Assembly (NCBI GenBank): GCA_031389635.1
Contig: JANMST010000262.1
Span: 1 to 33,750, forward strand
Direction of reading: 5' to 3'
Length of the DNA stretch: 33,750 nucleotides
From: Acidimicrobiia bacterium
Lineage (GTDB): Bacteria; Actinomycetota; Acidimicrobiia; Spongiisociales; ZC4RG35
The notes beneath the pieces were generated by a model. That model saw only the letters and a list, made by a program, of their open reading frames with translations, searched no databases and was not told where the DNA came from. Made by a program: the position numbers and the translations under genes. This document shows, one piece after another, positions 10,925-31,740 of the stretch (within the stretch, counting starts at the first letter, position 1; each line of letters opens with the position of its first letter).

Positions 10925-11018
10925 TTCGCCTGCCGTACTGGCGTCTAGCGTCTAGCGTCTCGGTTTCTCGACGGCAGGTGCACCACAAAACGCCCCCGGG
11001 TGTATCGTTCGTCTCGTT

Positions 11019-11438: not shown

Positions 11439-11444
11439 TGAGCC

Positions 11445-12524: not shown

Positions 12525-12570
12525 AGCGTCTCATTCCAACCGGGCGGCGTTGAACATCAGCGCGACGGAA

Positions 12571-12595
12571 GTTGAACCGGACAAGGCGGTTCAAC
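12571..12595. promoter_or_regulatory. Perfect 9-bp inverted repeat GTTGAACCG-N7-CGGTTCAAC in a divergent promoter region
   Basis: The repeat lies between the lipoprotein start (12524) and the 12641 gene. A third GTTGAAC copy sits at 12550..12556. Confidence 0.3.
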
Positions 12596-12640
12596 TCGTG
12601 TGGAACTGGCGTCCAACCCGGACCCGGTTGATTCCACAGG

Positions 12641-13333: not shown

Positions 13334-13385
13334 GTCCGCAAGAAGGACAGCGAGGGAAAGGTGGCCCGGTATCGCCGCTTCCCGG

Positions 13386-13492
13386 CTTCTTTGGTGTGTG
13401 AGCGTCGGCTTTTTGCTTCTTTGGCGTGTGTGCATCGCCGGCGGAGCCCACGCGCCAAAGAAGGTGGAGAGCAACGCTCACACGCCAAAGAA
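13386..13492. repeat. Four copies of a roughly 15-19 bp motif (CTTCTTTGGYGTGTG) arranged direct-direct-inverted-inverted, giving nested hairpins
   Basis: The outer arms are 13386..13405 and 13474..13492 (one mismatch). The inner arms are 13415..13430 and 13449..13463 (one mismatch). The element sits between convergent genes. Confidence 0.8.
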
Positions 13493-13546
13493 TGCGGCGA
13501 AGGCAGGAGCCCCGCCGCTCTTATTAGCGAAAAGCAACGGCTCGAT

Positions 13547-14134
13547 TCAGACCTGACGGCGGGCCCCGCGCCGCCTTAGGAACGTCACGACCACGATTGC
13601 GACGGCGGCCGACCATGTGAGCAACGGAATGAAGATCACCGCCCCGATTCCGGCGAAGAGCCGGCCGCCGAGACCTTGGCTTACCGCCAATGTGACCGGC
13701 GGGCCGCTGTCCCCTCCCGGGTAGTCGCCGATCATGAGGACCGGGCCTGCCTCTGCAACCTCGAATTGCAGCACTGCCTCCCCGGTCCGGTTTCCGATGG
13801 TGTAGGTGAAGGATCCGTTGGGATTGTCCATTTCGAGCGAATCTCCCTGACCCGAGATGACCTCGACTGCCAGACCACCGACCGCGGGATCGAGACCCGA
13901 CCCGGCTGGATACTCAACGAAGATCGTGTAGGTCCCGGGTTCGGCGAGAAGGAATTCGGTCTGGCCCGGGAACTCGGCGCGTTGCAGGTCGTCGTCGATG
14001 GTCGTGAGGGTTTGCCAGAGGGCAAACCCTGCCCCGAGGAGGCCGGCCAATGCCAGCAATCCGGCCACTAGATACCACTTCCGTCCAGGGCCCTTGCGGG
14101 GGGTGACTGCGAGATTCTCAGGATTTGGCGTCAT
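13547..14134 (-). CDS. Membrane protein with two TM helices flanking an extracytoplasmic beta-rich domain
   Basis: The ATG at 14134 (MTPNPEN...) lies within ORF 13547..14458. The TM segments are WYLVAGLLALAGLLGAGFALW and LFAGIGAVIFIPLLTWSAAVAIVVVTFL. The upstream extension is Arg/Pro-rich junk. Confidence 0.7.
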   Translation of the reverse strand: MTPNPENLAVTPRKGPGRKWYLVAGLLALAGLLGAGFALWQTLTTIDDDLQRAEFPGQTEFLLAEPGTYTIFVEYPAGSGLDPAVGGLAVEVISGQGDSLEMDNPNGSFTYTIGNRTGEAVLQFEVAEAGPVLMIGDYPGGDSGPPVTLAVSQGLGGRLFAGIGAVIFIPLLTWSAAVAIVVVTFLRRRGARRQV

Positions 14135-16494: not shown

Positions 16495-18684
16495 CTAGCG
16501 GCGCAGGAAGGCCGCCAGGTTCCGCAACTCGGCCGAGGGATCGATCCCGAGCTGCTCGGAGAACTTCCGAAGACATTCGTCGTAGGCAGTTAGGGCTGCC
16601 ACCCGATCACCACGGGCGAGATGGGACCGCATCACCACCATCCAGGCCCGCTCCGATAGCGGCTGTCGGATGAGGGCGGCCCGGGCTCGGGCCAGCGCAT
16701 GATCGGTCTGGTCGAGGTCGAGCAGCCACTCGGCCGAACGGATCGAAAGGTCGGAGGCGAGCTCACTCAATCGGGTACGTTCCCGAACCGCCCACTCCGT
16801 GTAGGGCTCCGAGGCCAGGTAGTCCTCCCCGGCGAGGTCGAGGGCCCGGACCGCCGACTGTTCGGCGGCTTCCAGGTCTCCCGCCGCGGCGCTCGTCGTC
16901 GCCTCGCCGGCCAGGTCGAGAAACTCCGCTACGTCGAGCCATTCGATCATCTCGGGCGCGATCCGGTAGAACGATCCTTGTCGTCGCAGGCATTTGGAAC
17001 CATCCGGGTGGATCTGTTCGAGACCCCGACGAGTCGCCGTCAACGCCACGTTCAGGTTCTTTGAACCACGTTCCGGATCACCCTCGGGCCAGAGGGCTTC
17101 CATCGCATGGTCGCGATGAACCGGGTCGCCCTGATGGTGCAGGAGCAGCGCCAACAGTGAAACCGCCTTCTTCGACCGCCAGGTCCAAACCGGCACCGGC
17201 TGTCCGCTGAGCCTTACTTCGAGATCGCCGAAGAGTCGAGCGCGAAGACGAAGCGGTTGGGCGGCGACTGTGAAAGTACCTTCTCCGCGACGCGTCAGCG
17301 CGACCAGGTTCTGCGCGGTCTCGGCCGTGTCGGGGTCCGCCAATCCCAGTTCGAGGAGTTCGGGATGAAGGGATGCATGGGCCGCGAGGACGTGCTCGAG
17401 GCGATATCGACCGACCATCGCCAGCGCCTGCCCGACCAGATCGAGAGCCTCGGCGTGATCCTCCGACGCGAGCTTGGCCGCTGCCAGCCACCACTGAGCG
17501 ATGACCAACTCGCCTTTTGAGTCAAAGGTCGTAAGAACAGGCAGAAGGCTCTCGATGTGGTCAGCAACTCGAGAAGGGGGGTCACCCGAAGCCAGTTGCG
17601 CCCGGGCCTGGCAGGAAAGCAGGCGGGCGTTTTCCAACGGGTCGGGCGAGGGGACCCGCAACCGGACTGCTTCGTCGGCGTCGCGGCGGGCACCCGCCGG
17701 GTCTCCGGCCGCTAGATGAAGGTCGGCCCGGGAGGCATAGGTGTGGGCGAGGCCGAACACGTTCTCGGCAGATGCCTTGAGGGCAATAGAGCTCTCGTAG
17801 AGGTCGAGCGCCTCGTCGAAGCGCCGCTGCTCGCGACGGGCCTCAGCGAGGTTGTTCAGCGCATACGACCGGGTGGTGTCGTGATCGGTGCGCTTGGCCA
17901 GTTCGATGGCCTCGGTGAGATGGCGGACGGCTCGATCAAACAGACCGAGATGACGCTCCGTGTGTCCGAGACTGTTGAGGGTGTTGGCCAGGGACAGATA
18001 GTTGGTGCCCCCCAGCTTGAGTTCATAGGCGCGCTCGAGGAAGGTTCGGGAAGGAACCGGCTCGCCTCGGTCCAGCAGCCTGGTGCCGAGATTGTGATAG
18101 GCCCGAGACGTCGAGAAGGTGAGCCCGTTCTGGCGGTAGAGATGCAAGCCCTCCAACCAGAAGGCGAACATCCCCGATTGGTCGTGGGACACCCATCGCG
18201 TCTCGTCTTCATCGAGGACTAGATCGGCGACAGGTGGGTCGCTCCAAGTCAGCGCCTCTTCGAAGGCTGTTCGAGCCTCGGCGAAGACCCCCTCCCGTTC
18301 CAGAATGACCCCTTCGGCCATGCCGACGAGGAACCGGACCCTCCGACCCGAAGGAGTGTCTTCCGCCCACCTAGTCCGGAATTGATGACCGGCCCGGCGC
18401 AGCGTCACGAGGGCGAGCGTGTGACGCCGACGGGTCGACCAGACCCACGCCAGGTAATAGAGGACCCAGGCGTTGTCCGGGGCCGACTGCTCGAGCCGCC
18501 GCAGGGTCGCCTCCATCCGATCGAGAGGAAGATCGAAGCCGAGCTCGACGAACATGATGGCACCCTGGTCGAGCGCCTCGAAGGCTCGATCCTCCTCACC
18601 GGCGTCGAGGGCAGCCTCTATCGCCTCCAATTGGCGGAGCACCCGCCGATCGGCAGTCCCGACCGGAATACGTCGGTCGTCCAT
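16495..18684 (-). CDS. TPR-repeat protein with a C-terminal OmpR-type winged helix plus BTAD domain (SARP module at the C-terminus)
   Basis: The C-terminal ~250 aa read LFGDLEVRLSGQPV...RSKKAVSLLALLL...AMEALWP, followed by the BTAD helices (SERAWMVVMRSHLARGDRVAALTAYDECLRKFSEQLGIDPSAEL). The N-terminal ~480 aa are TPR-like. I found no Walker motifs. Confidence 0.85.
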   Translation of the reverse strand: MDDRRIPVGTADRRVLRQLEAIEAALDAGEEDRAFEALDQGAIMFVELGFDLPLDRMEATLRRLEQSAPDNAWVLYYLAWVWSTRRRHTLALVTLRRAGHQFRTRWAEDTPSGRRVRFLVGMAEGVILEREGVFAEARTAFEEALTWSDPPVADLVLDEDETRWVSHDQSGMFAFWLEGLHLYRQNGLTFSTSRAYHNLGTRLLDRGEPVPSRTFLERAYELKLGGTNYLSLANTLNSLGHTERHLGLFDRAVRHLTEAIELAKRTDHDTTRSYALNNLAEARREQRRFDEALDLYESSIALKASAENVFGLAHTYASRADLHLAAGDPAGARRDADEAVRLRVPSPDPLENARLLSCQARAQLASGDPPSRVADHIESLLPVLTTFDSKGELVIAQWWLAAAKLASEDHAEALDLVGQALAMVGRYRLEHVLAAHASLHPELLELGLADPDTAETAQNLVALTRRGEGTFTVAAQPLRLRARLFGDLEVRLSGQPVPVWTWRSKKAVSLLALLLHHQGDPVHRDHAMEALWPEGDPERGSKNLNVALTATRRGLEQIHPDGSKCLRRQGSFYRIAPEMIEWLDVAEFLDLAGEATTSAAAGDLEAAEQSAVRALDLAGEDYLASEPYTEWAVRERTRLSELASDLSIRSAEWLLDLDQTDHALARARAALIRQPLSERAWMVVMRSHLARGDRVAALTAYDECLRKFSEQLGIDPSAELRNLAAFLRR

Positions 18685-18805: not shown

Positions 18806-19921
18806 CTATTCGTCTTTCACGTCGAATTCGACGATCAGGCCCGTCTGGTCCTGGTCCGGGAAATCGGTGTGGTAGCCCAGTTCGGCCTTCCACGTCGCCC
18901 GATCCCAATCCTTGTTGTCCTTGGTCCAATAGTTGAAGTGAAGGACCGGGTTGTCACTGTGAAAGATGATCCTGGCCACCGAGTCGCTATCGGGATGGTT
19001 GAACTTGCGCCCGCTCGACGAAATCAGGAAGTGCTTGCTGTCCAGGCGTTCCATCAACTCGTTGCTGAGATTGTTCTTGCTGCCATGGTGAGGCACCTTG
19101 AAGGCGTCGATCTTCAGCTTGGACTCGCCCCGTTCGGCCAGCAGGCGATCGAGCCCTTCGATCAGTGAGCCGCTGCGTGCGTCACCCGTGAAGAGGACGG
19201 ACCTATTCCCATACTCGGCCAGGAAGCTGATGCTGCTGGCGTTGGGAGCGCTCGAATCTTCGCTGAACTTGCGATTGGCCCATTTCTCCACATTGGGGGC
19301 GGCGCTTCCCAAGCGATCCTTCTGATAGCGCGGAGCGTCTTCGAGCAACTTGGCACCGGTGAATTCACCACCCGGTACGAGCCCGGCGTTCTCGATTGTC
19401 TTCTTCCACTCCGCCTTCAGGCGACCGAGATCCTTGGGGTTCGGGCCGACGATTGTCAGAGTCATCCCACCCGGGAGCTTGTAAACCGGCAGCCTCGTCG
19501 TCGGGTCGGACGAGATGGCGATCGCCTTGCCACCGGTCATCTGATGATGGGGATAGCCCCGCTGGGAGATCCTCTCCGTGAGCATCTCGCCTTGCTTGGC
19601 CCCGAGGGTGTCGGCCTCCTTGATCTGTTCCCAGGCGTTGAACCAGAACTCCCCGACCTCGAGCTCGAGGTCCTCGCTGAGGAGCTTGACCATCGCGTCG
19701 ATGTGGTCGTTGTCGATGTGGGTGATCGTGATCAACTCGAACCTGCGCGTACCGTCGATGCCCTCGATCTTCTCGAGCAACCGGTCGTGAGTTCCGAGCA
19801 CTCCACCGTCGATGAGGATGCGGCGCGGCTTCTTGGGATCTCCGTATTCGATCCACAGGGCATCGCCCTCCTCGGCCGGGAGCATCTCGATGCGAAGCTT
19901 CTTTACGATGCCACCCTCCAA
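18806..19921 (-). CDS. MBL-fold metallo-hydrolase, ComEC/Rec2-nuclease-like, soluble stand-alone
   Basis: Motifs are ITHIDNDHIDA (an HxDxDH variant of HxHxDH), SVLFTGDA and KVPHHGSKNN. The probable start is TTG at 19921, because the beta-1 strand LRIEML must be included. This start overlaps the upstream gene by 19 nt. Confidence 0.8.
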   Translation of the reverse strand: MEGGIVKKLRIEMLPAEEGDALWIEYGDPKKPRRILIDGGVLGTHDRLLEKIEGIDGTRRFELITITHIDNDHIDAMVKLLSEDLELEVGEFWFNAWEQIKEADTLGAKQGEMLTERISQRGYPHHQMTGGKAIAISSDPTTRLPVYKLPGGMTLTIVGPNPKDLGRLKAEWKKTIENAGLVPGGEFTGAKLLEDAPRYQKDRLGSAAPNVEKWANRKFSEDSSAPNASSISFLAEYGNRSVLFTGDARSGSLIEGLDRLLAERGESKLKIDAFKVPHHGSKNNLSNELMERLDSKHFLISSSGRKFNHPDSDSVARIIFHSDNPVLHFNYWTKDNKDWDRATWKAELGYHTDFPDQDQTGLIVEFDVKDE

Positions 19922-22698
19922 TCAGCGTCGCCGTAGGCGACGATCGACAGCACCATGGGATATCCGTCGTGCAGTGCCTTTCGTCGCAGGCGGCGAAGAA
20001 CGTCTCCGAGTCCGGTCTCCTCACCAGCCGCCTCGGACTTCAGGAAGCTGAGCAACTCGACGGCCACCGGCACGGCATGACGACCGAGAATGGTATTGGT
20101 GGTGCTGATGACGACCGCGGCCCCGGCCCGGCGGAACCTCGGGACGAGACCCTGAAAAGGGATCTTGGGGTTGGCGGTCTCGCACCCGAGGAGCACCGCA
20201 ACGACCGGCTTGGTTCGAGGCTCACGCATACGAACCCCCACCCTATTGACGGGTTCAAGCTCTCCGCCACCGATTTCCATCCCGATCGAAACACCGTCCT
20301 GATCGGTGTGCGGCACCAGGAAAATCATCGACGGATCGAGCGTTCCCATCTTCTCTTCGAAGTCATCCCAACTCATCGCCTGGGTGGCCTTGAATCCTCC
20401 TTCGGTCAGAGTCGTGGTCAGGTCTGATCGGTCCTCAGGGCTGACCTTGTCGCTCATGCTCCACAACACCGATTCGAGAGGCGTGATGCAATTGCGACCG
20501 GCGATGGGCTCTGATTGGAGGCGATACTCCCCCGCCAGCTCGACGAAGCTCGGATCGTGGGCGTGGCGTTCGATCACGTAGCGAACCCCCCAGAAGCCGG
20601 TTGGACAAATGGGGATCTCGCCAGGTCCGTGCCGCGTTTCGCAAGGCTGGCAGGTTCCCTCCAACACCACCTTCTTCCAGCTCTTGCAGAGCTTTCGCAC
20701 CGTCGGTGGGCGCAGGGCATAGAACAACTCCACCGGGAGATAAGACTCGGGTGTGGCCGAGATGATCTGGACCCGGCCCTCGGCAAAGAACCGGTCGGTG
20801 ATGCCGTGGTCGTTGACAAAGGTCTGGTGGAGCTCCTCACCGATCGTGGCCGCGTCGAAGAGGAGATCGAGGCTCGCCGGCGAGGTCAACGATTCGAAGG
20901 CATCGGGATCGTCGGCCACCGCCGTCAGAACGCCGATGAGCTGATCGATTCGAGGCCTCAGCCCGTCAACCGATCGCAGGGTCACACCGTCCTTGCAGAT
21001 GACGGTCGCCGCCTTGTCGCCGGAATCGTTGCGGTTGACAACGATGGCCACATCGAACGTCTTCAGGTCCGACAATCCTCCGAGGCCGGCTCGCACGATC
21101 GTCTCGACCTCGATCTCGGGCCTTCCCAGTCGGGACGGACGGCTGGCCACGACGTCGGATCGGAACAGAGCCGTTTGCAGCACCCGGCCCTGGAAGTAGA
21201 GCGCGATGCGCCCGAACACCGGGCCTGGATCGGTTATCAACAACGTGAGCTCGGCCCGATCGGAGTCGCCGGTGACCGGGAGGGTGACATGGGTTCTTTG
21301 GGTTTCTTCCTGGTTGTCGGCGCAGACGAAAGCAACCTCGATTTGATTGGGTCCCTCCGGCAGGTCGTCGACCGGAACCGCCGGCGCCTCTGGGCGGGTG
21401 ATTGATTCAGAGGAAAGGACACCGATCCACACCTCGAGGGAGTAGGCCTTGCCTGCCTCGAGGGCGACCTTGTGATCGACGCCGCCCTTCTTGATGGCGC
21501 CGTTCAACACTCGAACCTCGACTACTTCGTTCTCATGGTCACCGCGGGTTCCTCCATGTGAGCCGCCGTCCCCGTTGGCGGTGGCCATCTCCTCGGGAGG
21601 GGGCAGCTCCCCGGCGGCCGTGACCAGCATGGCCAGACCGGTCGCCTCGTGACTCTCGCCTTCGAAAGTGAATCGATCGTTGCGGATCGCATCCGACAGG
21701 TAGGACGCCAGAGCTCCCGCAAAGACCTTGCCGGATATCGTGAGTCCGGGGAGCAACTGGGATATCTCCTCGGATACATCGATCTCATAGTGACGGATAC
21801 GTGAGAGCCGGTCGGCGAATCGAGCAATGGTTTCCGATATGCGGCTGTCTGCGACCAGCCGGTATGAGAGGGCGCTGTATCCGGCACCGTTGTTCGTGAT
21901 CTCGGCGCGCTTCAAGGCGAAGTCGATCGGATCGTCGTGGGAGAGACCCTCGACCACGGCGTTGAGCCATCCGGGGTTCGAGTCGGGGGCTCCCGCCAGG
22001 TGGCATCCCCAGGCCCCGAACCGACTCGCCAGCCGGTCGGCGATTCGGGCGACCTCTGCTGGCTCGACGTCGACCGGCCCGAGAACGACGACCAAACCAG
22101 GCGAGACCTCGGGCACGATATCCATCGCGTCGGCCTCCGAGGCCGACCAGGGAACGAGCAATATCTCGCATCCTTCTCTCGCGTCAACCAGAGTCTGGAG
22201 TTGCGGCCACCACAACGAACCCTCGAGCTCACCACGCAGGCGCTCGGATCGTGCATCGTCGGCCAGGATCCCGATCCGCAACGGCCACCGCCATGAGAAT
22301 TCACCCGCTCCTGGTTCGGCAAGAACGTAGGCGCTAACACCGCGCTCGGGCTCGGTCATCACCATTAGCCAGTCGTGCAATTCGCTCTGAATTCCGAAAC
22401 CAGGATTCACCTGAAGCCTGACCGGGATCGCCCCGCCAGCTCTGGCAGCAACGGCAGGCGGCAACCACTCAAGGCTGCGGCGGGGCCGCTCCCAACGCAC
22501 TGCCTTTTCGGTGTCGCTCAGGACATCTCGAAGGGCGGCCATCAAGTCACTTTGATAGACGAGTTCCGGGTGGGCTTCGAGGACGCCAGCCGCCACGATG
22601 GCGTCCGAGAACTGGCGGTCGATGAGCTGGGAACCCCAATCGCCGAGTGACTTCCTCACCTGAAAGAACGGGCTCGGTGTCCGAGGGCTGGTTGCCAT
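19903..22698 (-). CDS. Large (931 aa) protein with a C-terminal CHAT (caspase-fold peptidase) domain
   Basis: A GGAG RBS lies 6 nt before the ATG at 22698. The C-terminal ~290 aa show IISATPESYLPVELFY, His in FLVPHTD and Cys in VAVLLGCET 42 residues later, then AGAAVVISTTNTI. I do not recognise the N-terminal ~640 aa. Confidence 0.8.
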   Translation of the reverse strand: MATSPRTPSPFFQVRKSLGDWGSQLIDRQFSDAIVAAGVLEAHPELVYQSDLMAALRDVLSDTEKAVRWERPRRSLEWLPPAVAARAGGAIPVRLQVNPGFGIQSELHDWLMVMTEPERGVSAYVLAEPGAGEFSWRWPLRIGILADDARSERLRGELEGSLWWPQLQTLVDAREGCEILLVPWSASEADAMDIVPEVSPGLVVVLGPVDVEPAEVARIADRLASRFGAWGCHLAGAPDSNPGWLNAVVEGLSHDDPIDFALKRAEITNNGAGYSALSYRLVADSRISETIARFADRLSRIRHYEIDVSEEISQLLPGLTISGKVFAGALASYLSDAIRNDRFTFEGESHEATGLAMLVTAAGELPPPEEMATANGDGGSHGGTRGDHENEVVEVRVLNGAIKKGGVDHKVALEAGKAYSLEVWIGVLSSESITRPEAPAVPVDDLPEGPNQIEVAFVCADNQEETQRTHVTLPVTGDSDRAELTLLITDPGPVFGRIALYFQGRVLQTALFRSDVVASRPSRLGRPEIEVETIVRAGLGGLSDLKTFDVAIVVNRNDSGDKAATVICKDGVTLRSVDGLRPRIDQLIGVLTAVADDPDAFESLTSPASLDLLFDAATIGEELHQTFVNDHGITDRFFAEGRVQIISATPESYLPVELFYALRPPTVRKLCKSWKKVVLEGTCQPCETRHGPGEIPICPTGFWGVRYVIERHAHDPSFVELAGEYRLQSEPIAGRNCITPLESVLWSMSDKVSPEDRSDLTTTLTEGGFKATQAMSWDDFEEKMGTLDPSMIFLVPHTDQDGVSIGMEIGGGELEPVNRVGVRMREPRTKPVVAVLLGCETANPKIPFQGLVPRFRRAGAAVVISTTNTILGRHAVPVAVELLSFLKSEAAGEETGLGDVLRRLRRKALHDGYPMVLSIVAYGDADWRVAS

Positions 22699-23121
22699 CC
22701 GAAGCTCCTATCGACCTAACACGTCATACAGGTGCAATCCCACCTGATGCCAGCCAATCGGAGATGGGTTCGTCCCATCTCTCCCATCGCCTGGAAGGGG
22801 GATGTAGAGGTCATTCGGTTGGTCCACATTTTGGTCGATGCCGGGCCCGGATGAGGGGATCGTTGGCGATCGGAAGGTGCGCACTTTCCGGACTCGTCCG
22901 GAGGCGGTTCCCAGAACGCGGCTTTGAACCTGGCTTTGCGCAGAGGCAACGCCAGGGAGCGATCGCAAGCGTCTGTTGCCTTTCATGCGGTTGCCCCCCT
23001 GTATTCCTGGTCCGAACCACGGTTGAGGCAAGACAGTCCCCCAGCCGCAAGACAGATGTACCTCAGGGTTGTCTTTGGCGTGTCTCGCTGTTGAGCTGCC
23101 GCCCGAGCTCCGGAAGCGCTC

Positions 23122-26100
23122 ATGTACGGCCGCCGTCGTTTCGCTAGATTCGTGTGCATGGCTCCTATCCGGATCCATCTACTCGGTGGGTTTCTGCTCG
23201 AGCACGACGGGCGCAACATGCCTCCCATCCCGTCGGCGGCGGGCCGATCTCTGTTCGCATATCTAGTCACCAACCGCGATCGGCGGCACACGAGGGACCT
23301 TGTTGCGGGCACTTTCTGGCCGGATCTCCCGGAGCAGGGAGCCCGGCGACGACTGAGCCAGGCCTGGTGGCAGATCCAGACCTCACTTCAAGATGTCAAG
23401 TCGGGTCACCCGTTCATCGAGGCCACCCTGTTCGACGTTGCGTTTGTTGCTACGGACTACTGGCTGGACATCGCCGAATTCGACCGCCAGATCAGCACCG
23501 CTGCCAAGCAGGCCGTAACCCGCGACCCGGCCGAGTCGGGATCACTGGAACAAGCCGTTGATCTCTATCGGGGCGAGTTCCTCGCCGGCTTCTACGACGA
23601 CTGGACCCACTTCGAGAGAGAGCGGCTTCGCTCGCAGTATTTGGTGAGCCTGGAAAGACTCATCGCGCTGCACAAGAGCCGGGCCGACTATGAGACAGCC
23701 CAGTACTTCGCCCGACGATTGAGCTTGCATGACCCGCTGCGAGAGTCGGCTCATAGGGAGGTGATGAGGCTCAGCTTCCTGCTCGGCCACAGCAATGAGG
23801 CACTTCGACAATACGAGCGGTGTGCGGACATCCTTTCCGAGGAACTGGGGAGACGCCCCTCAACAGAAACCGAAGAGCTCCGCATCCACATCGCTCAGAT
23901 GCGAGAAAAGGGTGAGAGCCCATTTGCTCCCACCATCAATGCTCCCCTTCTGAATGCGGCCCAGCGAATCCCCCTTGTGGGCCGAACCGAGGAGAGGAGC
24001 AGCATCCTCCGACGGATGGAGGACACGCTGCACGGCCGGGGGGGCGTGATCTTGGTCGAGGGGGAATCGGGCATTGGAAAGTCCAGACTCGTGGAGGAGT
24101 TGATCGACGATGCTCAGTGGCGCGGGCTGAGCCCCCTGCTGGCGACCTGTTCTGAAGCTGAGTTGCTTCACCCCTTGCAGGGTCTACGTCGGGCATTGCA
24201 AAGCGGATTGACCCGCCTTCGCTTCGATCAACTACAGGCAGTCTTGCATCGGAACACCCTCGCTGAGCTGGCCGAGTTGGTGCCTCACATCAGGGGCTGG
24301 CTCAACGACTCCGGGCTCGCTGCCGGCCCACCAGACGGCAACGCCCGAGAACAGCACCTACACACCATTCGCTCCGCGTTGTTCGCTCTTGCCGACCTCA
24401 ACCCCATCGTGCTCTTTATCGACGACGCCCAATGGCTTGACGAAGAGTCGGCGGCCGTTCTGGCAGAACTCGCTCCTGATATCGCCGATCACGGTCTGCT
24501 GATCCAATTGAGCTACAGAGACAGCGAGGTCAGGGATCGGCCGGTGATGTGGCAGCGACTCCTCGACATCGACGCCAGGACCAACACCCAACGGATCAAA
24601 ATCATTGCTCTCGACCTGGTCGAGTCAGGACGACTCGTGGAAGAGAGCTTGGGCGAAACCAAGGCAGACCCCGACCTGGTTGAGGGTCTGTACTTGGAAA
24701 CCGGGGGCAATCCTCTCTTCATCCTCGAGTCTCTGCGAGGGTGGCATGAGAACACGCTGGAAGGGCTCGGGCACGAAAGCCTGGATCGAAGACTCACGCT
24801 CCCGCCCACCAGCGGTGTCACGAGCGTCATCAGCCGCCGGCTCCAATCGCTTTCGGCCCAAGCCAAGGCGGTCCTCGAAGCCACCGCCGTGCTGGGGGGT
24901 CAGGCAAGATCGCGGCTGGTGGCATCCATGACCGGCTTGCCAATGGCTACCACGGTCCAATCGGTGACAGATCTGGTCCGGCGGGGCCTGCTACGTGAGA
25001 ACGTTGCGGGCTACGAGGTACCCCACGACCAGCTTCGGCGAGTGGTGTTGGGCGGGATCGACGGCGCCATGCTGAAGGTGATCCATGAGCGGGCCGCCAA
25101 TGCAATCGAGACCGAACAGCCCGACCTCGTCGAGGACCTCGCCTATCACTTTTCGGCCAGCCACATCGCCGACAAGGCTTACCGCTACTCGCTTCTATCC
25201 GCGAGGAGAGCCGTTGCCCTGGGTGCCTACGACATCGCGGTGCGACAGTTCGAGAACGCTGCCCGTTGGGCGGTGGGCGACGAGCGCTACCCGGTCCTCA
25301 CGGAATGGGAGGAAGCATTGGCGGTTCTCGGTCTACGAAGCGAGCAACACCGCATTCTCAACGAGTTGGCGGAGGTGGCAGTCGGTCCGGAAAAGAAAGC
25401 CGAGCTGGCCCGTCGACGGAGCCGGCTCTTCGCCGAGGAGGGCAATCACCGCCAGGCGGTGGAGGTTGCCAACCAGGCCCTCGTCGACAGCGAAGCGGGT
25501 GTGCCGCCGTTGCTGAAGGCGAGGTTGCTTCAGAACCTGGGATTGGTCATGGCCCGCTCGGGCCGGGCCCAGGAAGCCCTCCCCCATCTCGAAGCGGCCG
25601 TCGAAGTACTGGGCGACGATGTCGTTTCCAGAGCCGCCGCCCTGTGCGAGCTCGGCAACGTCCTCTGCGAGGTGCAGGAGTACCAGCGAGCCTCGGTTGC
25701 CTTGGCCGAGGCGAAGAGCCTCTACGAAGACATCGGCGACCTGCGAGGCACCGCCGAGGTCAACTCTCAACTGGCAATTGTGTCGATGGAGTTGGGTGAC
25801 GGGGACACCGCCATCAGCCTCTATACCGCAGCACTGCAGATCTCCCGCGAGCTCGACTACCGCCGCGGTCAGGCCGTCAACCTCGCCAACCTGGCCAACG
25901 TCCTCTACACCCAGGGAAAGGTCGGCCCCGCTCTGGGCCATTACCAGGAGGCAGCCTCGATTTTCTCCGAGATCGGGAATCGACTGGGGGCGGCCCTCGT
26001 ATCGACCAACGCAGCTTCGGTGAGATATCTGGTATTGGGAGATGCCTCGGTTGAGGCCGATATCCGACGCTCCCTCGCCTACTTCGAACAGGAAGACCAT

Positions 26101-26961
26101 CGATGGGGGCAGGCATTCTGCCAGGAGCACCTGGCCACTATCAGCCAGGGCAGCGGCGACCTCGCAACGGCCCGCGATCTCATAAACCGGGGCCTTGCTC
26201 TCCTGGAAGGGGGAGGACACCGCTGGGTCGAGGTCCATCTCCGCCGGCTCGGTGTGGAAGTCGAACTCGAGGCCAACGAGCCCGACCAGGCGGCGCTCCA
26301 GGTCGAAATCGCACGCCGGCTTTGCGACGAGCTCGGTCTGGCCGATGTTGCTCCCACCATCGAAAGCCTCGATGCCCTCGTGAAACTGAGCTACGGGCAG
26401 GTGGACGAGGCCCTCATGTCCGCTCGACGAGCTACCAACCTTCTGCAGAGAGGGACCGAGTTGCCGCATCTGGTCTGGTTCAGGCGCTACTTGGTCGCCA
26501 AAGCTGCGGGAGCGGATACCGATGCGGTCGACTCCTTGGCCAGGTCAGTGGCGCTCCTTACCCGGGTTCTCGATTCGTTTGGAACCGATGATCGCCGCCT
26601 GGCCATTACACGGGCCCACCATGTTCGAGCGATCATCGAGGCGCGGGATCGAAGCTTTCCCCAGATCCAGGAAATTCGCCTCCCGCTGGCCGGGATTCCC
26701 CTCGGGCGATCGTTAAAGGGCGGGGACTGGACCCAGGTCCGCTGGACCGTGTCCGATCCCTCCGATTTCGACGTGCCCGACCCGGTCGGGCGGCGTCGGC
26801 TCAGAATCAGGCGTTTCCTCGATGAGGCGGCCCGGCAGGGCGCCGACCCCCGTATCGAGGATGTCGCCACCGCACTGGGGGTGAGCGTGGCCACGGTCCG
26901 CAGGGACGTGGCCGAACTCAGACGAGCGGGTTCCGGACTGAGCACCCGCGGCAGCCGTTAA
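23122..26961 (+). CDS. SARP/AfsR-like regulator: OmpR-type wHTH + BTAD + AAA/NB-ARC-like ATPase + TPR + extra C-terminal HTH (1279 aa)
   Basis: Domain evidence is IRIHLLGGFLLEHDG, the BTAD segment (LRESAHREVMRLSFLLGHSNEALRQYERCADILSEELG), Walker A LVEGESGIGKSRL, Walker B VLFIDDAQWLDEES and TPR helices. The C-terminus IEDVATALGVSVATVRRDVAELRRAG is DeoR-like. The start is 23122 (GGAAG RBS) or 23158. Confidence 0.9.
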   Translation: MYGRRRFARFVCMAPIRIHLLGGFLLEHDGRNMPPIPSAAGRSLFAYLVTNRDRRHTRDLVAGTFWPDLPEQGARRRLSQAWWQIQTSLQDVKSGHPFIEATLFDVAFVATDYWLDIAEFDRQISTAAKQAVTRDPAESGSLEQAVDLYRGEFLAGFYDDWTHFERERLRSQYLVSLERLIALHKSRADYETAQYFARRLSLHDPLRESAHREVMRLSFLLGHSNEALRQYERCADILSEELGRRPSTETEELRIHIAQMREKGESPFAPTINAPLLNAAQRIPLVGRTEERSSILRRMEDTLHGRGGVILVEGESGIGKSRLVEELIDDAQWRGLSPLLATCSEAELLHPLQGLRRALQSGLTRLRFDQLQAVLHRNTLAELAELVPHIRGWLNDSGLAAGPPDGNAREQHLHTIRSALFALADLNPIVLFIDDAQWLDEESAAVLAELAPDIADHGLLIQLSYRDSEVRDRPVMWQRLLDIDARTNTQRIKIIALDLVESGRLVEESLGETKADPDLVEGLYLETGGNPLFILESLRGWHENTLEGLGHESLDRRLTLPPTSGVTSVISRRLQSLSAQAKAVLEATAVLGGQARSRLVASMTGLPMATTVQSVTDLVRRGLLRENVAGYEVPHDQLRRVVLGGIDGAMLKVIHERAANAIETEQPDLVEDLAYHFSASHIADKAYRYSLLSARRAVALGAYDIAVRQFENAARWAVGDERYPVLTEWEEALAVLGLRSEQHRILNELAEVAVGPEKKAELARRRSRLFAEEGNHRQAVEVANQALVDSEAGVPPLLKARLLQNLGLVMARSGRAQEALPHLEAAVEVLGDDVVSRAAALCELGNVLCEVQEYQRASVALAEAKSLYEDIGDLRGTAEVNSQLAIVSMELGDGDTAISLYTAALQISRELDYRRGQAVNLANLANVLYTQGKVGPALGHYQEAASIFSEIGNRLGAALVSTNAASVRYLVLGDASVEADIRRSLAYFEQEDHRWGQAFCQEHLATISQGSGDLATARDLINRGLALLEGGGHRWVEVHLRRLGVEVELEANEPDQAALQVEIARRLCDELGLADVAPTIESLDALVKLSYGQVDEALMSARRATNLLQRGTELPHLVWFRRYLVAKAAGADTDAVDSLARSVALLTRVLDSFGTDDRRLAITRAHHVRAIIEARDRSFPQIQEIRLPLAGIPLGRSLKGGDWTQVRWTVSDPSDFDVPDPVGRRRLRIRRFLDEAARQGADPRIEDVATALGVSVATVRRDVAELRRAGSGLSTRGSR

Positions 26962-27078
26962 CGCCACGACCGTTGGTTGCCGGCATGAGCGCTTAGTTCG
27001 GCCAACTCCACCCTTTCCCACGAGATAGGGGTGAGACAAGCGTCCTGCATGCTCACCCACAGAAGAAGGAGGTCGAAA

Positions 27079-27171
27079 ATGCGTCGAGTTCTGACGCTCG
27101 TAACCCTGGCAATAACCACCCTGCTCGTAACCGCGGCCCCGGCCCTGGCAAGCGTGGTCAACATTCATTGA
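27079..27171 (+). CDS. Unannotated 30-codon ORF: Sec-type signal peptide followed by the hexapeptide SVVNIH (candidate secreted pro-peptide)
   Basis: An AAGGAGG RBS (27066..27072) lies 6 nt before the ATG. The translation is MRRVLTLVTLAITTLLVTAAPALA/SVVNIH, with a positive n-region, a hydrophobic core and an AxA site. It lies 117 nt downstream of, and co-directional with, the TPR regulator. Confidence 0.45.
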   Translation: MRRVLTLVTLAITTLLVTAAPALASVVNIH

Positions 27172-27180
27172 ATCAACCAA

Positions 27181-27196
27181 GCCGCCAGCAGGCGGC
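27181..27196 (+). terminator. Short GC hairpin (GCCGCC-AGCA-GGCGGC) 10 nt after the small ORF
   Basis: The inverted repeat is seen directly. There is no U-tract, so the terminator call is weak. Confidence 0.25.
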
Positions 27197-27353
27197 GGCC
27201 GCCTCGGACAGGTTCAACATTTAGCTCGTGGTGGACCCAGCGAATAAGCAGGCCAATCGGTCCCAGTCGACGGGGGAATGTCACTGGAGACCAGGGGCTG
27301 CTCCGGATCGCTAGGGGAGTCGGAGAACCCGTCCGGGGCGGCTGTTCCTATTG

Positions 27354-27476
27354 ACGTGGTGCGTGGTGCGTAGGAACCCGTGGTGGGTGGTGCGTGGTGC
27401 GTTCCGTAAAAGCCTTCTCGTGATTGATATATCGCGTGTTTGAAACGCACCACACACCACGCACCACGCACCACGC
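27354..27476. repeat. Heptad repeat array (GTGGTGC) in inverted configuration, forming a long imperfect hairpin
   Basis: Direct heptads sit at 27356-62, 27363-69, 27380-86, 27387-93 and 27394-400. Inverted heptads (GCACCAC/ACACCAC) sit at 27447-53, 27454-60, 27461-67 and 27468-74. The AT-rich ~40-nt loop contains TTGATATAT. Confidence 0.85.
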
Positions 27477-27479
27477 TCT

Positions 27480-28559
27480 TTATGGTGCTTTCGGGTGGGG
27501 GATTAGGTACTCGGGGTCGTCCCACTGGATCCGGGCCTGGTCGACCGCCAACTTGTAGGTCGAATCGGCCGTCATGCGGTCCTTTACGCTCTGATGGATC
27601 CGGGGGTCGGGGGGCTCTTCGGGCCCGGACTTGAAGGCCTCGATCGTCCTGGTCCTGAAGGTGAGCAGCGCCCAGATCCAACCGGCCTTGTGGACCCGGC
27701 CCCGGGCATGGGTCGGATCGAGTTTGCAGGTCTTGGCGTAAGCCCGCGGCCGCAAGAGCAAACCCTCATCGAGGGCACGATCGGTCATCCATTTCAGCGA
27801 CACCACGGACAACTCGACCTGGTCCTTGAAGCCACCACCCACATCGCTGTGGACACCGGCAAACCACACCTCCCGTAGGTCCGGAGTTGTCTTCGCGTCG
27901 GCGAGGTACTCCCGATAGGGTCGCCGGCGCTCGTCGATGGAGACTGCGTGTCGAACCACGCGGGCATTGGGGAGTTGCCGGGTGTAAAGCCATTGCGGAT
28001 TCCACCGCAGTAGTCCGAGGGCCTTGACCGAGTCCCACAGCCCCAGGAAGTGGAGAGGAAGAGACAAGCTGCCCTCGCTCTCGACGGAGAAAGATTTGGC
28101 GAACCGATCGATCCTGTCCCAATCGTCCTTCTTCCAGGAGTTGCCTTTGGTGTAGGCGGACACGAGGTAATTGACGAGGTTCTCGGCCCCGCGTCTCATC
28201 AGTCCGCCCCGGTGAGCCATGCCAACCAGGGCGCGGGCCGTGTAGGCCCCTCGGCTAAAACCGAAAACATAGACACGGTCGCCGGGTTCATAGACCTGCA
28301 TCAGGTAGGTGTACGCCTCGGCCATATTGACCTTGATTCCGAAGCCGAATGTGAGTCCGAGCAGCTTGGTCAGGGCTCTTCCCCACGACGTCCAGGCGCC
28401 CTGGGCGCCGAAGGTACCAACCCCGGGGTCGTAGAAGGCGACCTGACGTTCCGGGTCTGAGAGGTCGAGCATCTCATAGAGGTTCACCACGTTCGAGGTG
28501 CCCCGGGCCTTGATCTGGTTGCCAGTGCCATCGAGGCACAAAACGATGTTCTTGGCCAT
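27480..28559 (-). CDS. DUF2235 alpha/beta hydrolase (T6SS Tle1-like phospholipase family)
   Basis: The N-terminus is MAKNIVLCLDGTGNQ. The nucleophile elbow is VFGFSRGAYTARAL. Other family segments are FLGLWDSV and FAGVHSDVGGG. Confidence 0.85.
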   Translation of the reverse strand: MAKNIVLCLDGTGNQIKARGTSNVVNLYEMLDLSDPERQVAFYDPGVGTFGAQGAWTSWGRALTKLLGLTFGFGIKVNMAEAYTYLMQVYEPGDRVYVFGFSRGAYTARALVGMAHRGGLMRRGAENLVNYLVSAYTKGNSWKKDDWDRIDRFAKSFSVESEGSLSLPLHFLGLWDSVKALGLLRWNPQWLYTRQLPNARVVRHAVSIDERRRPYREYLADAKTTPDLREVWFAGVHSDVGGGFKDQVELSVVSLKWMTDRALDEGLLLRPRAYAKTCKLDPTHARGRVHKAGWIWALLTFRTRTIEAFKSGPEEPPDPRIHQSVKDRMTADSTYKLAVDQARIQWDDPEYLIPHPKAP

Positions 28560-29096: not shown

Positions 29097-29345
29097 TCAA
29101 CCCTTGGCTGTCGTTCGATCTTTTGCTGGGCTCGTTTCCGGAGCCAGAGCAGCCTCAGCCGCTCGGAGTGCACCTGGTAGGTCGAGATCCTCCCCTGCTC
29201 TGATCTCCCTGTTGCGGTCGCTGACATCCATTCTCAGGACGAGCTTCTCGCGAAGTTCGTTGGCGAAGTTGCGATCCACCGGTGGTCGCTCGCCTCCCAG
29301 ATCGTTGTAGATCTTCTCGGCCGCGCCCCACAAACGGGCCGCCGG
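29097..29345 (-). pseudogene. Detached C-terminal tail of a large ATPase-TPR regulator, in a different frame from the cyclase ORF
   Basis: The frame reads ARLWGAAEKIYNDLGGERPPVDRNFANELREKLVLRMDVSDRNREIRAGEDLDLPGALRAAEAAL. This matches the conserved tail pattern (RLLGAAEALRE.G.PLPP..R.......G..L.L..A...AL) of SARP/cyclase-ATPase-TPR proteins. No ATPase or TPR body lies upstream. Confidence 0.55.
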
Positions 29346-30486
29346 GTTGACCTTGTCCTGGGCTGCGGGCGGCGTCGAGGGAGCGCAGAGGCGGAAAGCG
29401 TTCCATCAACCCGTCGGCAGCCACCTGGTAGATGTGATCGTCCGAGGGGAAGTCCTTGAGGCGGTGCCGGCCGAGATCGACGAGCGAGAAGTTCTGGCGG
29501 CCCCCGACGAGGCGGGCGGTGGTGGATGAAACCAGTATCTGACCGCCGTGACCGGCGGCCGCAATCCGGGCACCACGGTGGACGTCGATACCGAGGTAAC
29601 GGTCGCCAACCAGGGTTGCTTCGCCAGTGTGAAGGCCCATCCGCACTCTGACGATGGCGTGGTCGGGCCAGGCATGTGCGGCCAGTTCGCGCTGCGCCCC
29701 TACGGCCCCGGCCACGGCAGAGACCGCCGACGGAAAGACGGCGAAGAAGCCGCCACCGGCCGTGTCCACCTCGGCTCCGCCACCCCGGCTGATCGCACTG
29801 CGAACGATCGCGTGGTGTGCCTCGATGAGTGTGGAGTAGCGGTCCCCGAGCTGGCGCAGCAGAGCCGTCGACCCTTCGATGTCTGTGAAGAGATACGTGA
29901 CAGTGCCCTGCGGAAGCGAGGACTCCCCTTCCTCCCGGTCGAGGAAGCGCTCGCTGATCAGAACCGCCAGATCCTCCGACACCAACTGCCCCAGCTCTTC
30001 TGGAGTCGAGAAAGTTCGGTAACTGAGCTCGGCGTCCGACATGATCTCTCCGAGGAACCGGGTCAAGCCGGGTTGGCGGCCCGGGGAAGGCTCCTTCACG
30101 TAGATGAGGCGAGGCCTCTCCTTCCATTCCGCGAACTCTTCTTCGATGCCCGTGGGGCCGCCGCCCTCGGCGGCCCAGCCGATGCTCTCCCAGTAGATGC
30201 CGACGAAAACGTCGCTTTGGTCGAGATATGAGAGGTATACGTCGCGAGGTGAGTGATCACGAGCGCCTACCTCGAACATGATCGGGGTCAGCCGCAGCTG
30301 CTCGATCGCCTCCCGGGCGTACTGGCGTTCTGCGGCGAGTTCTTCAAGAGTCGAACTCACGAAGATTCTGAGCCGACGATCTGGGGTCGTAATCACTGTT
30401 TGGGCGACTTCAGCTGGCGGGCTGATCCGCCTGTCGTCGACGACCGAGTCCGAGCGCCTCCATGTCGGCATGGTCGAGATCGTCAC
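29155..30486 (-). CDS. DUF4062-like domain + class III cyclase homology domain protein, apparently truncated (the last ~70 codons look out of frame)
   Basis: The DUF4062-like segments are RIFVSSTLEELAAERQYAREAI and DVFVGIYWESIG. The cyclase segments are VTYLFTDIEGST, RMGLHTGEATL and FPPLRSL. After about 29370 the frame becomes Arg/Gly/Gln-rich junk. The GTG at 30396 would avoid the 77-nt overlap with the upstream gene. Confidence 0.65.
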   Translation of the reverse strand: MTISTMPTWRRSDSVVDDRRISPPAEVAQTVITTPDRRLRIFVSSTLEELAAERQYAREAIEQLRLTPIMFEVGARDHSPRDVYLSYLDQSDVFVGIYWESIGWAAEGGGPTGIEEEFAEWKERPRLIYVKEPSPGRQPGLTRFLGEIMSDAELSYRTFSTPEELGQLVSEDLAVLISERFLDREEGESSLPQGTVTYLFTDIEGSTALLRQLGDRYSTLIEAHHAIVRSAISRGGGAEVDTAGGGFFAVFPSAVSAVAGAVGAQRELAAHAWPDHAIVRVRMGLHTGEATLVGDRYLGIDVHRGARIAAAGHGGQILVSSTTARLVGGRQNFSLVDLGRHRLKDFPSDDHIYQVAADGLMERFPPLRSLDAARSPGQGQPGGPFVGRGREDLQRSGRRATTGGSQLRQRTSREARPENGCQRPQQGDQSRGGSRPTRCTPSG

Positions 30487-31408
30487 CGGGAATCACTGCC
30501 ACCCTCGCGTTTGTTGCAGCCCGGAGCGTGGCCATCCGAAGCCCGGATCCAAGTGCCGCCTGCTCACCCACGATCGCTCCCGGGCCCACCTCGGCCACTT
30601 CGGCACCGTCGATCTCGACCACCAGCAACCCGTCGAGCAGCAGGAATACCTCAGTGCTGTGCTGACCCTGGCTGACGAGAATCTCACCTTCTCGCAGGCT
30701 TCGCCTCGCCACGTTCCGGTCCTTCATGATCAAATTGGAGAGGCGTCTTTCACAATCCGATTCGACCTCGACGACCATGACCGGACTGTCGGGCCCGCCC
30801 CATGGTGTGTTCTCCTCCGGAGATCCGTACCAGTCGGCGAAGTCCATGATGGCGGACTTCTCGACGAGGCGTTGCTCCTCGTTGTAGACCCAATGGCGGG
30901 GAATGGCGCTGGCACCGGTCATCCGATGGCTGCAGGTCCCGTCCGGAAAGATGGTCAGAGTCAGGGTCGTCCATACCGGAGGGGCCACAAGCCGAATACG
31001 GTTGGTCCCGGCGATACGCCGGGGCGACGGCAGCGAGGTCCGGCCTCCCACGGTCTGGACGAAGGTGATTCCGCCGCCGTCGCTGAACGGTTCGGGCCGC
31101 AGGACCGGATATAGGACCGGTGTGAACCTGAGCCGGGCCGGGCCGAAGTGAACTTCGCTCCCCGAGATCATTCCCTTCCCGAGGTGGCCCCATCGCACCG
31201 CCTGACCATCCTCGACCTCGATGAAGGCGTTGAGATGGTTGGCGAACCGGAAGGCTCCTTGCTCCCCCATCTTCTCGAGATCATCGATCCGATCTGGAGG
31301 CGGTGGGTCATATCTGGTCACGCCCAACTCGAAGGGCAACGAGATGATTCCCTGCACTGCCTGCGAGGGAAGCCATGAGACGGAGGTAACGCTTCTCTCA
31401 AACCTCAT
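30410..31408 (-). CDS. Protein with an unknown ~230-aa N-terminal domain and a C-terminal cyclic-nucleotide-binding (cNMP/CAP-type) domain
   Basis: A GAGGAG RBS lies 7 nt before the ATG at 31408 (MRFERSV). The cNMP-binding pattern is LREGEILVSQGQHSTEVFLLLDGLLVVEIDG...VGPGAIVGEQAAL...RMATLRAATNARVAVI. Confidence 0.8.
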   Translation of the reverse strand: MRFERSVTSVSWLPSQAVQGIISLPFELGVTRYDPPPPDRIDDLEKMGEQGAFRFANHLNAFIEVEDGQAVRWGHLGKGMISGSEVHFGPARLRFTPVLYPVLRPEPFSDGGGITFVQTVGGRTSLPSPRRIAGTNRIRLVAPPVWTTLTLTIFPDGTCSHRMTGASAIPRHWVYNEEQRLVEKSAIMDFADWYGSPEENTPWGGPDSPVMVVEVESDCERRLSNLIMKDRNVARRSLREGEILVSQGQHSTEVFLLLDGLLVVEIDGAEVAEVGPGAIVGEQAALGSGLRMATLRAATNARVAVIPGDDLDHADMEALGLGRRRQADQPAS

Positions 31409-31740
31409 AAGGGGCTCCTCGACTAGAAGAAGACTCGTCCGCCAGGGCGGTCGCGAGGCACGGAGCCGCACTTAGCTGGAGGGCACTCTCCGCTTCGGGT
31501 TCGCCCGTCAAAGAGCCGCGCCCTTCGCCTCGGCAGTTGAGGCTACTACCGGCGCTGGGAGGCTGGGCGCCGCGCAACCCCAGCCTCGTCTGGCGCGGCG
31601 AGTTGCTCCTGGTGTCGATCGTCCGCGCCAAAACGAGGGTTTGGGAGCGTTCGCCAGAACCTCCGAGGACCTCCATCGAGGCGTAGCATCCGCTGCTCAT
31701 TGATTCATCCCCTAGATGAACAGGATGAGAGGTTTCGAAC

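Follow-up and report, generated by a model that had tools for sequence, protein, structure and literature searches.

The question raised by this locus is whether a very short open reading frame (ORF), placed directly behind the gene of a large regulator, encodes a peptide that is exported from the cell and sensed by that same regulator. The ORF, hereafter the mini-ORF, lies at 27079..27171 (+) of contig JANMST010000262.1 from an Acidimicrobiia bacterium, and the window analysed here is the whole contig, 33,750 bp with 61–67% G+C. Its 30-aa product, MRRVLTLVTLAITTLLVTAAPALASVVNIH, is followed by a stop codon and divides at the predicted cleavage site into MRRVLTLVTLAITTLLVTAAPALA and the hexapeptide SVVNIH. 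The answer favoured here, tentatively and with a probability of about 0.45, is that the mini-ORF encodes the precursor of an exported peptide and forms, together with the AfsR-like STAND regulator in front of it, an auto-inducing two-gene signalling cassette.

Such a cassette bears on two questions, namely peptide signalling beyond Firmicutes and the ligands of AfsR-like NOD-like receptor (NLR) regulators. Peptide signalling via a cytoplasmic receptor has been described for Firmicutes and their mobile elements (PMC10075063), and small molecules are regarded as the signals of Actinomycetota (PMC4748050). The native signals that activate AfsR-like NLR-type regulators are acknowledged to be unknown (bioRxiv 10.64898/2026.09.02.748808). 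The literature searched contained neither the string SVVNIH nor any account of a secreted peptide that partners a SARP or STAND regulator. In addition, RRNPP_detector leaves out receptors of more than 500 aa by design (PMC10075063) and would therefore have missed a cassette of this kind.

The Mini-ORF as a Conserved Gene

The mini-ORF starts 117 nt after the stop codon of the regulator gene (23122..26961), both being on the + strand, and a Shine-Dalgarno sequence, AAGGAGG at 27066..27072 (+), is separated from the ATG at 27079 by 6 nt (tcgaaa). The first-pass annotation, made from the letters of the window, had described this motif 6 nt before the ATG, the 30-aa ORF and its co-directional position 117 nt past a 1279-aa regulator, and the re-read sequence, the coordinates and the domain scan agree with it. 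It had also regarded the mini-ORF as unannotated, which holds for protein families, as neither Pfam nor NCBIfam has one covering the product, but not for gene calling, as it is already called as a gene on other contigs; its relatives are labelled 'hypothetical protein' in JGI. A motif of the AGGAGG or GGGAG type precedes the start in 10 of the 11 aligned loci, L169 being without a clear one.

Related loci were reached by two routes: exact look-ups of regulator homologues, having 40–93% identity to that of the window, and profile searches with the peptide, using a 46-aa in-frame extension and then a profile of the returned sequences. By the first route, all nine distinct loci carried an ORF of 30–31 codons 87–229 nt past the regulator stop; in L172 and L173 the mini-ORF is present though gene callers missed it. 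The second route yielded more than 40 further proteins of 29–31 aa, a few of them over-called from upstream starts, and for the two that were placed (P0160 and P0177), a collinear regulator homologue ends 104 nt before the ORF, with 35% and 37% identity. Every locus found via peptide homologues also has a regulator homologue, so that a homologous mini-ORF stands downstream of the regulator in 12/12 distinct loci, with regulators 34–93% identical to that of the window. Cluster mates and homologues of the regulator are named as Acidimicrobiia or Actinobacteria metagenome-assembled genomes (MAGs). The flanking genes vary among the loci; only the regulator accompanies the peptide gene throughout.

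When a hidden Markov model (HMM) of the peptide was compared with all six-frame ORFs of 174 loci, only the mini-ORF loci matched (E 1e-11 to 1e-16), and no match was obtained in the 162 loci of distant regulator relatives (≤32% identity) from GTDB and JGI. Regulator-based pattern scans in GTDB genomes and JGI metagenomes supplied the negative control and the motif background; all relatives obtained there had ≤32% identity, and none had a mini-ORF.

Regarding the mode of sequence change, pairwise differences between mini-ORFs amount to 0.41, 0.29 and 0.61 at codon positions 1, 2 and 3, respectively, and the codons of the arginine pair (RR) show 70 synonymous vs. 0 non-synonymous differences. 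The stop codon varies (TGA, TAG or TAA) at a fixed position, and the mini-ORF persists at 34–62% regulator identity, where the alignment of the flanking DNA fails. Judged by these sequence comparisons, the mini-ORF is a protein-coding gene under purifying selection, and the cassette of regulator and mini-ORF is real, widespread and previously undescribed.

Precursor Architecture and Hexapeptide Tail

The signal-peptide part of the precursor takes up 24 codons at 27079..27150 (+), comprising MRR, a hydrophobic core and A-P-A-L-A, and it is followed at 27151..27171 (+) by the predicted mature SVVNIH (27151–27168) and the stop codon TGA. Of 49 distinct precursors, 47 have 24 residues before the predicted cleavage site, and Ala at −1, Ala at −3 and Pro at −4 are each present in 48, while the +1 residue is Ser in 43. 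The n-region is invariably MRR, and the core is uncharged and hydrophobic, with a sequence that drifts freely. The tail has six residues in 40 precursors and seven in the other nine. This pattern is consistent with a classical Sec/signal peptidase I signal peptide placed directly before a functional peptide, without a pro-region. The Sec-type signal leaving a hexapeptide, as first read from the window, is borne out by the rule-based features (MRR, hydrophobic core, Pro at −4, Ala at −3 and −1).

The same 49 precursors show 20 tail variants, the commonest being SVVNIH (24/49). Deeper branches carry STVNIH, TVVNIH, TVVNIT, TVVQIH, SVVNIR, SVVNMH(G/L), NVVNVH and EITNMHG, and a sub-group with an MRRRLT leader has tails of the form S-x-x-x-M-S (SVSNMS, SGSQMS, SVRDMS, SISWMS and STSEMS). 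At the protein level the tail is the best conserved part of the mini-ORF, with synonymous changes. Because the core drifts while the P-A-x-A motif and the tail stay conserved, the tail is taken as the probable functional part of the precursor. The comparison of orthologous loci that the first-pass annotation had proposed thus gives a conserved position, a conserved signal peptide and a conserved C-terminal tail, the latter varying in the deeper branches.

The AfsR-like Regulator

The regulator encoded at 23122..26961 (+) is an AfsR-like STAND protein of 1279 aa, having a SARP domain (winged helix-turn-helix (wHTH) and BTAD), an AAA_16/NB-ARC-type NOD, TPRs and a C-terminal winged HTH. Its Pfam matches are BTAD (E 2.5e-24), AAA_16 at residues 284–453, TPR_12, TPR_2, TPR_MalT and, at the C-terminus, DUF1670/HTH_DeoR, with the TPRs at about residues 750–1110, and residues 16–259 align to the AfsR SARP domain 8hvr (8hvr_I). 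The NOD is assigned to the NB-ARC type because AAA_16 occurs together with a conserved Y-x3-HD motif at about residues 631–636. In AfsR, the NOD and TPR domains inhibit the SARP domain (PMC10936776).

An AlphaFold2 (AF2) model of residues 721–1279, with a predicted local distance difference test (pLDDT) of 95 and a predicted template modelling score (pTM) of 0.90, shows about 24 paired helices (about 12 TPR-like repeats) followed by a small beta/winged-helix domain. The best Foldseek matches of the TPR model in the Protein Data Bank (PDB) are the TSK/BRU1 TPR bound to a histone H3.1 tail and the TPRs of LGN/Pins, whose matched structures carry Inscuteable, NuMA, Frmpd or Afadin peptides. The modelled sensor arm would therefore be of a TPR type in whose groove extended peptides are typically bound, the resemblance being generic.

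The homologues of the regulator form a large family of full-length proteins (1243–1329 aa), in which SARP is the best conserved domain (50–72% identity). The domain-wise identities show the TPR region to be no more conserved than the NOD, and they are uninformative on a co-evolution of peptide and TPR. In L165 (ENA contig_62203, 10001–13813), gene calling breaks the regulator into five fragments, and the DNA near its 3′ end aligns well with the window; the split probably stems from frameshift errors in a long-read assembly, rather than from a pseudogene. The mini-ORF is intact there.

A Promoter Box Shared by Mini-ORF and Cargo

SARP target promoters carry direct repeats spaced by 11 or 22 bp, the 3′ repeat being 8 bp away from the −10 element; a SARP dimer bound at such repeats replaces the recognition of a −35 element (PMC10936776). 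The promoter of the mini-ORF fits this spacing rule. In the window, a candidate SARP box at 27022..27038 (+) is formed by the direct repeats GAGATA (27022–27027) and GAGACA (27033–27038), 11 bp from start to start, and a −10-like hexamer, CATGCT at 27048..27053 (+), follows 9 nt past the second repeat hexamer, or 8 nt if the repeat is counted as a heptamer. When the 75 nt upstream of all mini-ORFs were aligned, the same arrangement appeared, GAGAYA being followed by (G/A/T)AGA(C/G)(A/G), 11 bp apart from start to start, and in all loci by a −10-like hexamer (CATGCT, AATGCT, CATGGT, GATATT and similar) 9 nt after the second repeat. About 12–25 nt separate this hexamer from the Shine-Dalgarno sequence, and the geometry is found upstream of the mini-ORF in 12/12 loci.

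A regular expression for the repeats gave 23 matches in 154 kb of family loci vs. 1 in 1.54 Mb of unrelated loci. With a position weight matrix (PWM) trained on the 12 mini-ORF promoters only, having a background of 3 matches in 3.08 Mb, the mini-ORF promoter boxes score 33–38 bits. The box has two sites only in the window, the second candidate, GAGACA-cgcca-AAGACA-N9-TACATC, being located at 23055..23086 (−) with a PWM score of 14.1 bits. Upstream of the regulator, in the divergent region, PWM sites lie on the other strand in the window and in L163, L164, L165 and L166; in L168 such sites stand before two other neighbour genes. By the regular expression alone, a site is found before a LysM-CHAP gene in L167 and before an S8 peptidase gene in L166. 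As the same direct-repeat box stands in both promoters of the window, the link to the divergent operon suggested in the first-pass annotation gains support.

No sigma-70 consensus promoter is present in 26900–27500, and a consensus −35 is lacking, as is expected of an activator-dependent promoter. The large regulator is the sole SARP common to all loci, and the second SARP-TPR gene of the window (16495..18684) was not found in the gene tables of L166–L175. Because the shared box has SARP geometry and only this SARP is common to the loci, the regulator is the probable activator of both the mini-ORF and the neighbouring cargo operons. An inverted repeat formed by GGTGAG (27030–27035) and CTCACC (27052–27057), which had been singled out earlier, is indeed present in the window but not conserved. 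It was rejected as a hairpin or operator (GGTGAG-N16-CTCACC), as it overlaps the box and the −10 element and reads CTTCCC in L163/L165, and its loss in the closest relatives marks it as a chance occurrence.

Past the leftward box, the first gene is a conserved Arg-rich ORF of 92 aa (MKGNRRLRSLPGVAS...PIGWHQVGLHLYDVLGR) at 22708..22986 (−), which precedes the gene of a 931-aa protein and probably heads the operon driven by this box. In L164 (104 aa) and L165 (91 aa) its reading frame is unbroken, the indels being in frame, and no Pfam match was obtained for it. The cargo gene at 19903..22698 (−) encodes the 931-aa protein of unassigned family, with no Pfam, PADLOC or PDB sequence match; its homologues, a small family of hypothetical proteins in Acidimicrobiia, carry no Pfam domain. 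Its near-invariant H796 (PHTD) and C838 (LLGCET) would fit a caspase/CHAT-like dyad, and this pair is the only feature in line with the CHAT label given to it earlier, which could not be confirmed otherwise; its AF2 model is poor (pLDDT 57), with Foldseek returning only Ig-like CARDB-type matches to the middle domain. The next cargo gene, at 18806..19921 (−), encodes a protein with a metallo-β-lactamase (MBL) fold, classified as LmuA/Avs1a-like by PADLOC (LmuA E 1e-66 over the full length, Avs1a E 5e-43) and NCBIfam (Avs1a E 3e-57, under the curated cut-off), LmuA and Avs1a being effectors of defence systems.

The cargo differs elsewhere. The divergent cluster of L166 has a 27%-identical MBL beside the S8 peptidase, L167 has the LysM-CHAP hydrolase as a neighbour, and the remaining loci have unrelated neighbours. 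As only regulator, box and mini-ORF are constant across loci, they bear the signature of a regulatory cassette with putatively exchangeable outputs. In the SVRDMS-type loci L175/L176, genes of a HisKA/HATPase kinase and of a PAS protein lie directly after the mini-ORF (10216–11704, +); a histidine kinase next to the mini-ORF is seen in the L175–L178 sub-group only.

Proposed Mode of Action

The signalling cassette would operate in three steps. First, as suggested by the conserved cis-elements, the SARP domain would bind the GAGAYA-N5-GAGACA repeats in place of a −35 element and activate the mini-ORF, and the same box would drive the variable cargo, which in the window comprises the 92-aa ORF, the 931-aa protein and the LmuA/Avs1a-like MBL. 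Secondly, according to the sequence features of the precursor, the 24-residue signal peptide would export the product and signal peptidase I would cut after A-L-A, freeing SVVNIH directly. Finally, the free hexapeptide may build up outside, be re-imported and bind the concave groove of the TPR sensor, an event that would lift the auto-inhibition by NOD and TPR, so that the loop auto-induces and the cargo is turned on in a density-dependent manner. Re-import and TPR binding are the most speculative parts of this mechanism.

More doubtful than the cassette itself is the full version of this model, in which an AfsR-like NLR/STAND factor would be activated by SVVNIH and its variants as genetically encoded ligands, in a system evolved independently of RRNPP, auto-induced via the SARP box and switching variable cargo. 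This would be the first quorum sensing by peptide pheromone and cytoplasmic receptor in Actinomycetota, and the cargo switched would include the LmuA/Avs1a-like MBL in this contig and, at other loci, a CHAP hydrolase and seemingly an S8 protease.

Several points weigh against the peptide being sensed by its own regulator. The connection between peptide and TPR domain is something that we only infer. SVVNIH recurs in 24/49 precursors, beside regulators down to 54% identity, unlike the fast-diversifying pherotypes of RRNPP systems, and the precursor is without a pro-region. Neither the conserved neighbourhood nor the scanned ORFs of the window include an Opp-type importer, although Opp is usually unlinked in Firmicutes too. 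The divergence of the peptide does track that of the regulator, but over 12 pairs this is inseparable from shared ancestry. In addition, the strictly conserved RR could point to twin-arginine translocation (Tat) or to another constraint; the Tat-signal profiles (TAT_signal, TIGR01409) gave no match at E ≤ 1, and the n-region bearing this invariant pair consists only of MRR, the Tat profile being S/T-R-R-x-F-L-K with a long n-region.

Among the alternatives, the one that survives best, though rather unlikely, is that the mini-ORF is solely an output of the regulator, as afsS is of AfsR: the regulator activates it, and the peptide is exported and cleaved yet is not the ligand of the regulator. 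It could then signal to a different receptor, for instance a membrane kinase, act on a secreted cargo enzyme as its inhibitor or cofactor, or serve as a cue between species. The SARP box in itself marks the mini-ORF as a target of the regulator, the relationship of AfsR and afsS being itself an output one, and a near-universal SVVNIH across diverged regulators suits a fixed external partner over a private pherotype. The HisKA/HATPase gene directly after the mini-ORF of L175 offers a possible receptor, and the box-preceded neighbours include the LysM-CHAP gene of L167 and the S8 peptidase of L166, whose box was detected by regular expression only. However, that kinase occurs in L175–L178 only, whereas the regulator is the sole partner conserved with the peptide gene, and it is the adjacent gene that encodes a TPR sensor of the extended-peptide-binding type.

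Less probable again is a membrane micro-protein, in which the 30-aa product stays uncleaved as a single-pass protein with the N-terminus inside and the C-terminus outside, acting as a membrane-perturbing, toxin-like effector or as an anchor or modulator induced with defence-like cargo. Small membrane toxins have a similar size and hydrophobicity, the cargo includes the LmuA/Avs1a-like MBL, and the cleavage of the product is predicted by rule only. In contrast, RR and Pro(−4) are separated by a short hydrophobic stretch of about 13–17 residues whose sequence drifts freely, while what is conserved is the signal-peptidase motif (Pro −4, Ala −3 and Ala −1, each in 48/49) with the next six residues, the extracytoplasmic tail being the most constrained part of all.

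A precursor of the ribosomally synthesised and post-translationally modified peptide (RiPP) type with a dedicated modifying enzyme, or a leader or attenuator controlling a downstream gene only, is highly improbable: the small ORF, its conserved C-terminus and the strongly structured 3′ region in the window would suit either, but neither a modifying enzyme nor any downstream gene is conserved across loci, the next gene of the window is convergent, the 3′ structure is conserved only in close relatives, and no RiPP precursor family was matched in Pfam or NCBIfam. A chance ORF within conserved non-coding DNA, as the well-conserved intergenic region of the closest relatives might suggest, is refuted by the comparative data, namely persistence at 34–62% regulator identity where the flanks no longer align, the codon-position bias, synonymous-only change at RR, a variable stop at a fixed position and more than 40 family members retrieved by profile among billions of proteins.

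The exported-peptide cassette is therefore kept as the preferred reading, and it is a strong candidate, on the evidence of conserved sequence, for a new peptide-signalling circuit in actinobacteria. For the question of what activates AfsR-like NLRs, the family supplies an adjacent-encoded candidate ligand, a defined operator and defined target promoters. Moreover, the conserved box is a way to read the regulon of uncultured Acidimicrobiia from sequence alone.

The 3′ Region and Other Genes of the Window

Downstream of the mini-ORF, a structured region at 27181..27343 (+) consists of a hairpin (27181–27196) and a long stem of ~145 nt (27197–27343), folding with a minimum free energy of −91.8 kcal/mol (z = −4.75), and is a possible terminator or stabiliser. 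The structure is kept in L163–165, relatives of ~90% identity, with only two compensatory pairs, and a conserved 3′ RNA was rejected as part of the cassette because it is not conserved in distant loci. No intrinsic (T-tract) terminator was found in 26900–27500. Further on, 27355–27475 holds two inverted arrays of the heptad GTGGTGCGT, with six near-perfect 16-mers; within the window the arrays are confined to this place. The contigs of L164, L081 and L082 stop within these arrays, suggesting an assembly-breaking repeat, and L163 and L165 differ in sequence there. A search of Rfam with 26800–27600 gave nothing above threshold, the weaker miRNA matches over the GTGGTGCGT repeats being noise.

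The window is rich in signalling and STAND-type genes. Those encode a guanylate-cyclase–AAA_16–TPR protein of 1036 aa (4618–7728, −), the second SARP, having N-terminal TPRs and 729 aa (16495–18684, −) and also present in L165, a DUF4062–cyclase protein (29155–30486, −) and a cyclic nucleotide monophosphate (cNMP)-binding protein (30410–31471, −). A Tle1-like phospholipase gene (27480–28559, −) is convergent with the mini-ORF.

Comparison with Known Systems

AfsR-afsS is the closest known layout and transcriptional logic, and RRNPP the closest overall logic. AfsR directly activates the adjacent small gene afsS via two direct repeats (PMC10972967), a parallel that the first-pass annotation had not drawn. 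Here, too, the regulator is built of SARP, NB-ARC-type NOD and TPR, the small gene is adjacent, and its promoter has two direct repeats 11 bp apart in the placement of a SARP target. However, the regulator is not an AfsR orthologue, scoring 67.9 bits on the NCBIfam AfsR equivalog vs. a cut-off of 1430, and possesses an extra C-terminal winged HTH. The repeat is GAGAYA, compared to CGTT(T/C)ATCGNN for AfsR, and the hosts are Acidimicrobiia-type MAGs, while AfsR-AfsS belongs to Streptomyces. The products differ as well: AfsS is a cytoplasmic, sigma-like protein of 63 aa, whereas the 30-aa product, a signal peptide plus hexapeptide, has an N-terminal signal sequence and no family match, and is not an AfsS-type protein.

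Regarding the RRNPP systems (Rap-Phr, NprR-NprX, PlcR-PapR and AimR-AimP), the likeness lies in a cytoplasmic TPR regulator beside a small gene with an N-terminal secretion signal, the C-terminal 5–7 residues being the conserved moiety; AimP likewise ends in a hexapeptide. The published signature of this family consists of a propeptide of 10–100 aa, a secretion signal, a receptor of 250–500 aa, TPRs and neighbours at −60 to 400 bp (PMC10075063). Four of these five points are found here, namely a small propeptide (30 aa, and 29–31 aa across the family), a secretion signal by rule, TPRs and adjacency (117 nt, and 87–229 nt in 10 other loci), and the fifth fails, the receptor having 1279 aa. This receptor is moreover a STAND ATPase with a SARP output (SARP-AAA_16-TPR-wHTH), in which no RRNPP-specific Pfam family was matched, and no RRNPP receptor appeared in the top 50 Foldseek PDB matches. 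Additionally, the precursor is without a pro-region, so that cleavage by signal peptidase would suffice to free the peptide, the tail varies far less than RRNPP pherotypes do, and the phylum is Actinomycetota, where RRNPP-type systems are not described. The RRNPP/arbitrium-like assignment of the first-pass annotation consequently had to be given up, as membership fails on receptor size, STAND architecture and the lack of homology.

STAND factors of the MalT type share the combination of a NOD, a TPR-like sensor and a DNA-binding effector, and TPR_MalT matches the sensor of the regulator. The logic expected of both is a relief of auto-inhibition by a ligand, the inducer of MalT being maltotriose. 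That inducer is a metabolite, with no adjacent gene encoding a ligand, and the effector of MalT is of the LuxR type, whereas it is a SARP in the present family. Taken by its sequence features, the cassette is best described as a STAND/SARP receptor-type regulator accompanied by the gene of a putatively secreted mini-peptide, in Actinomycetota.

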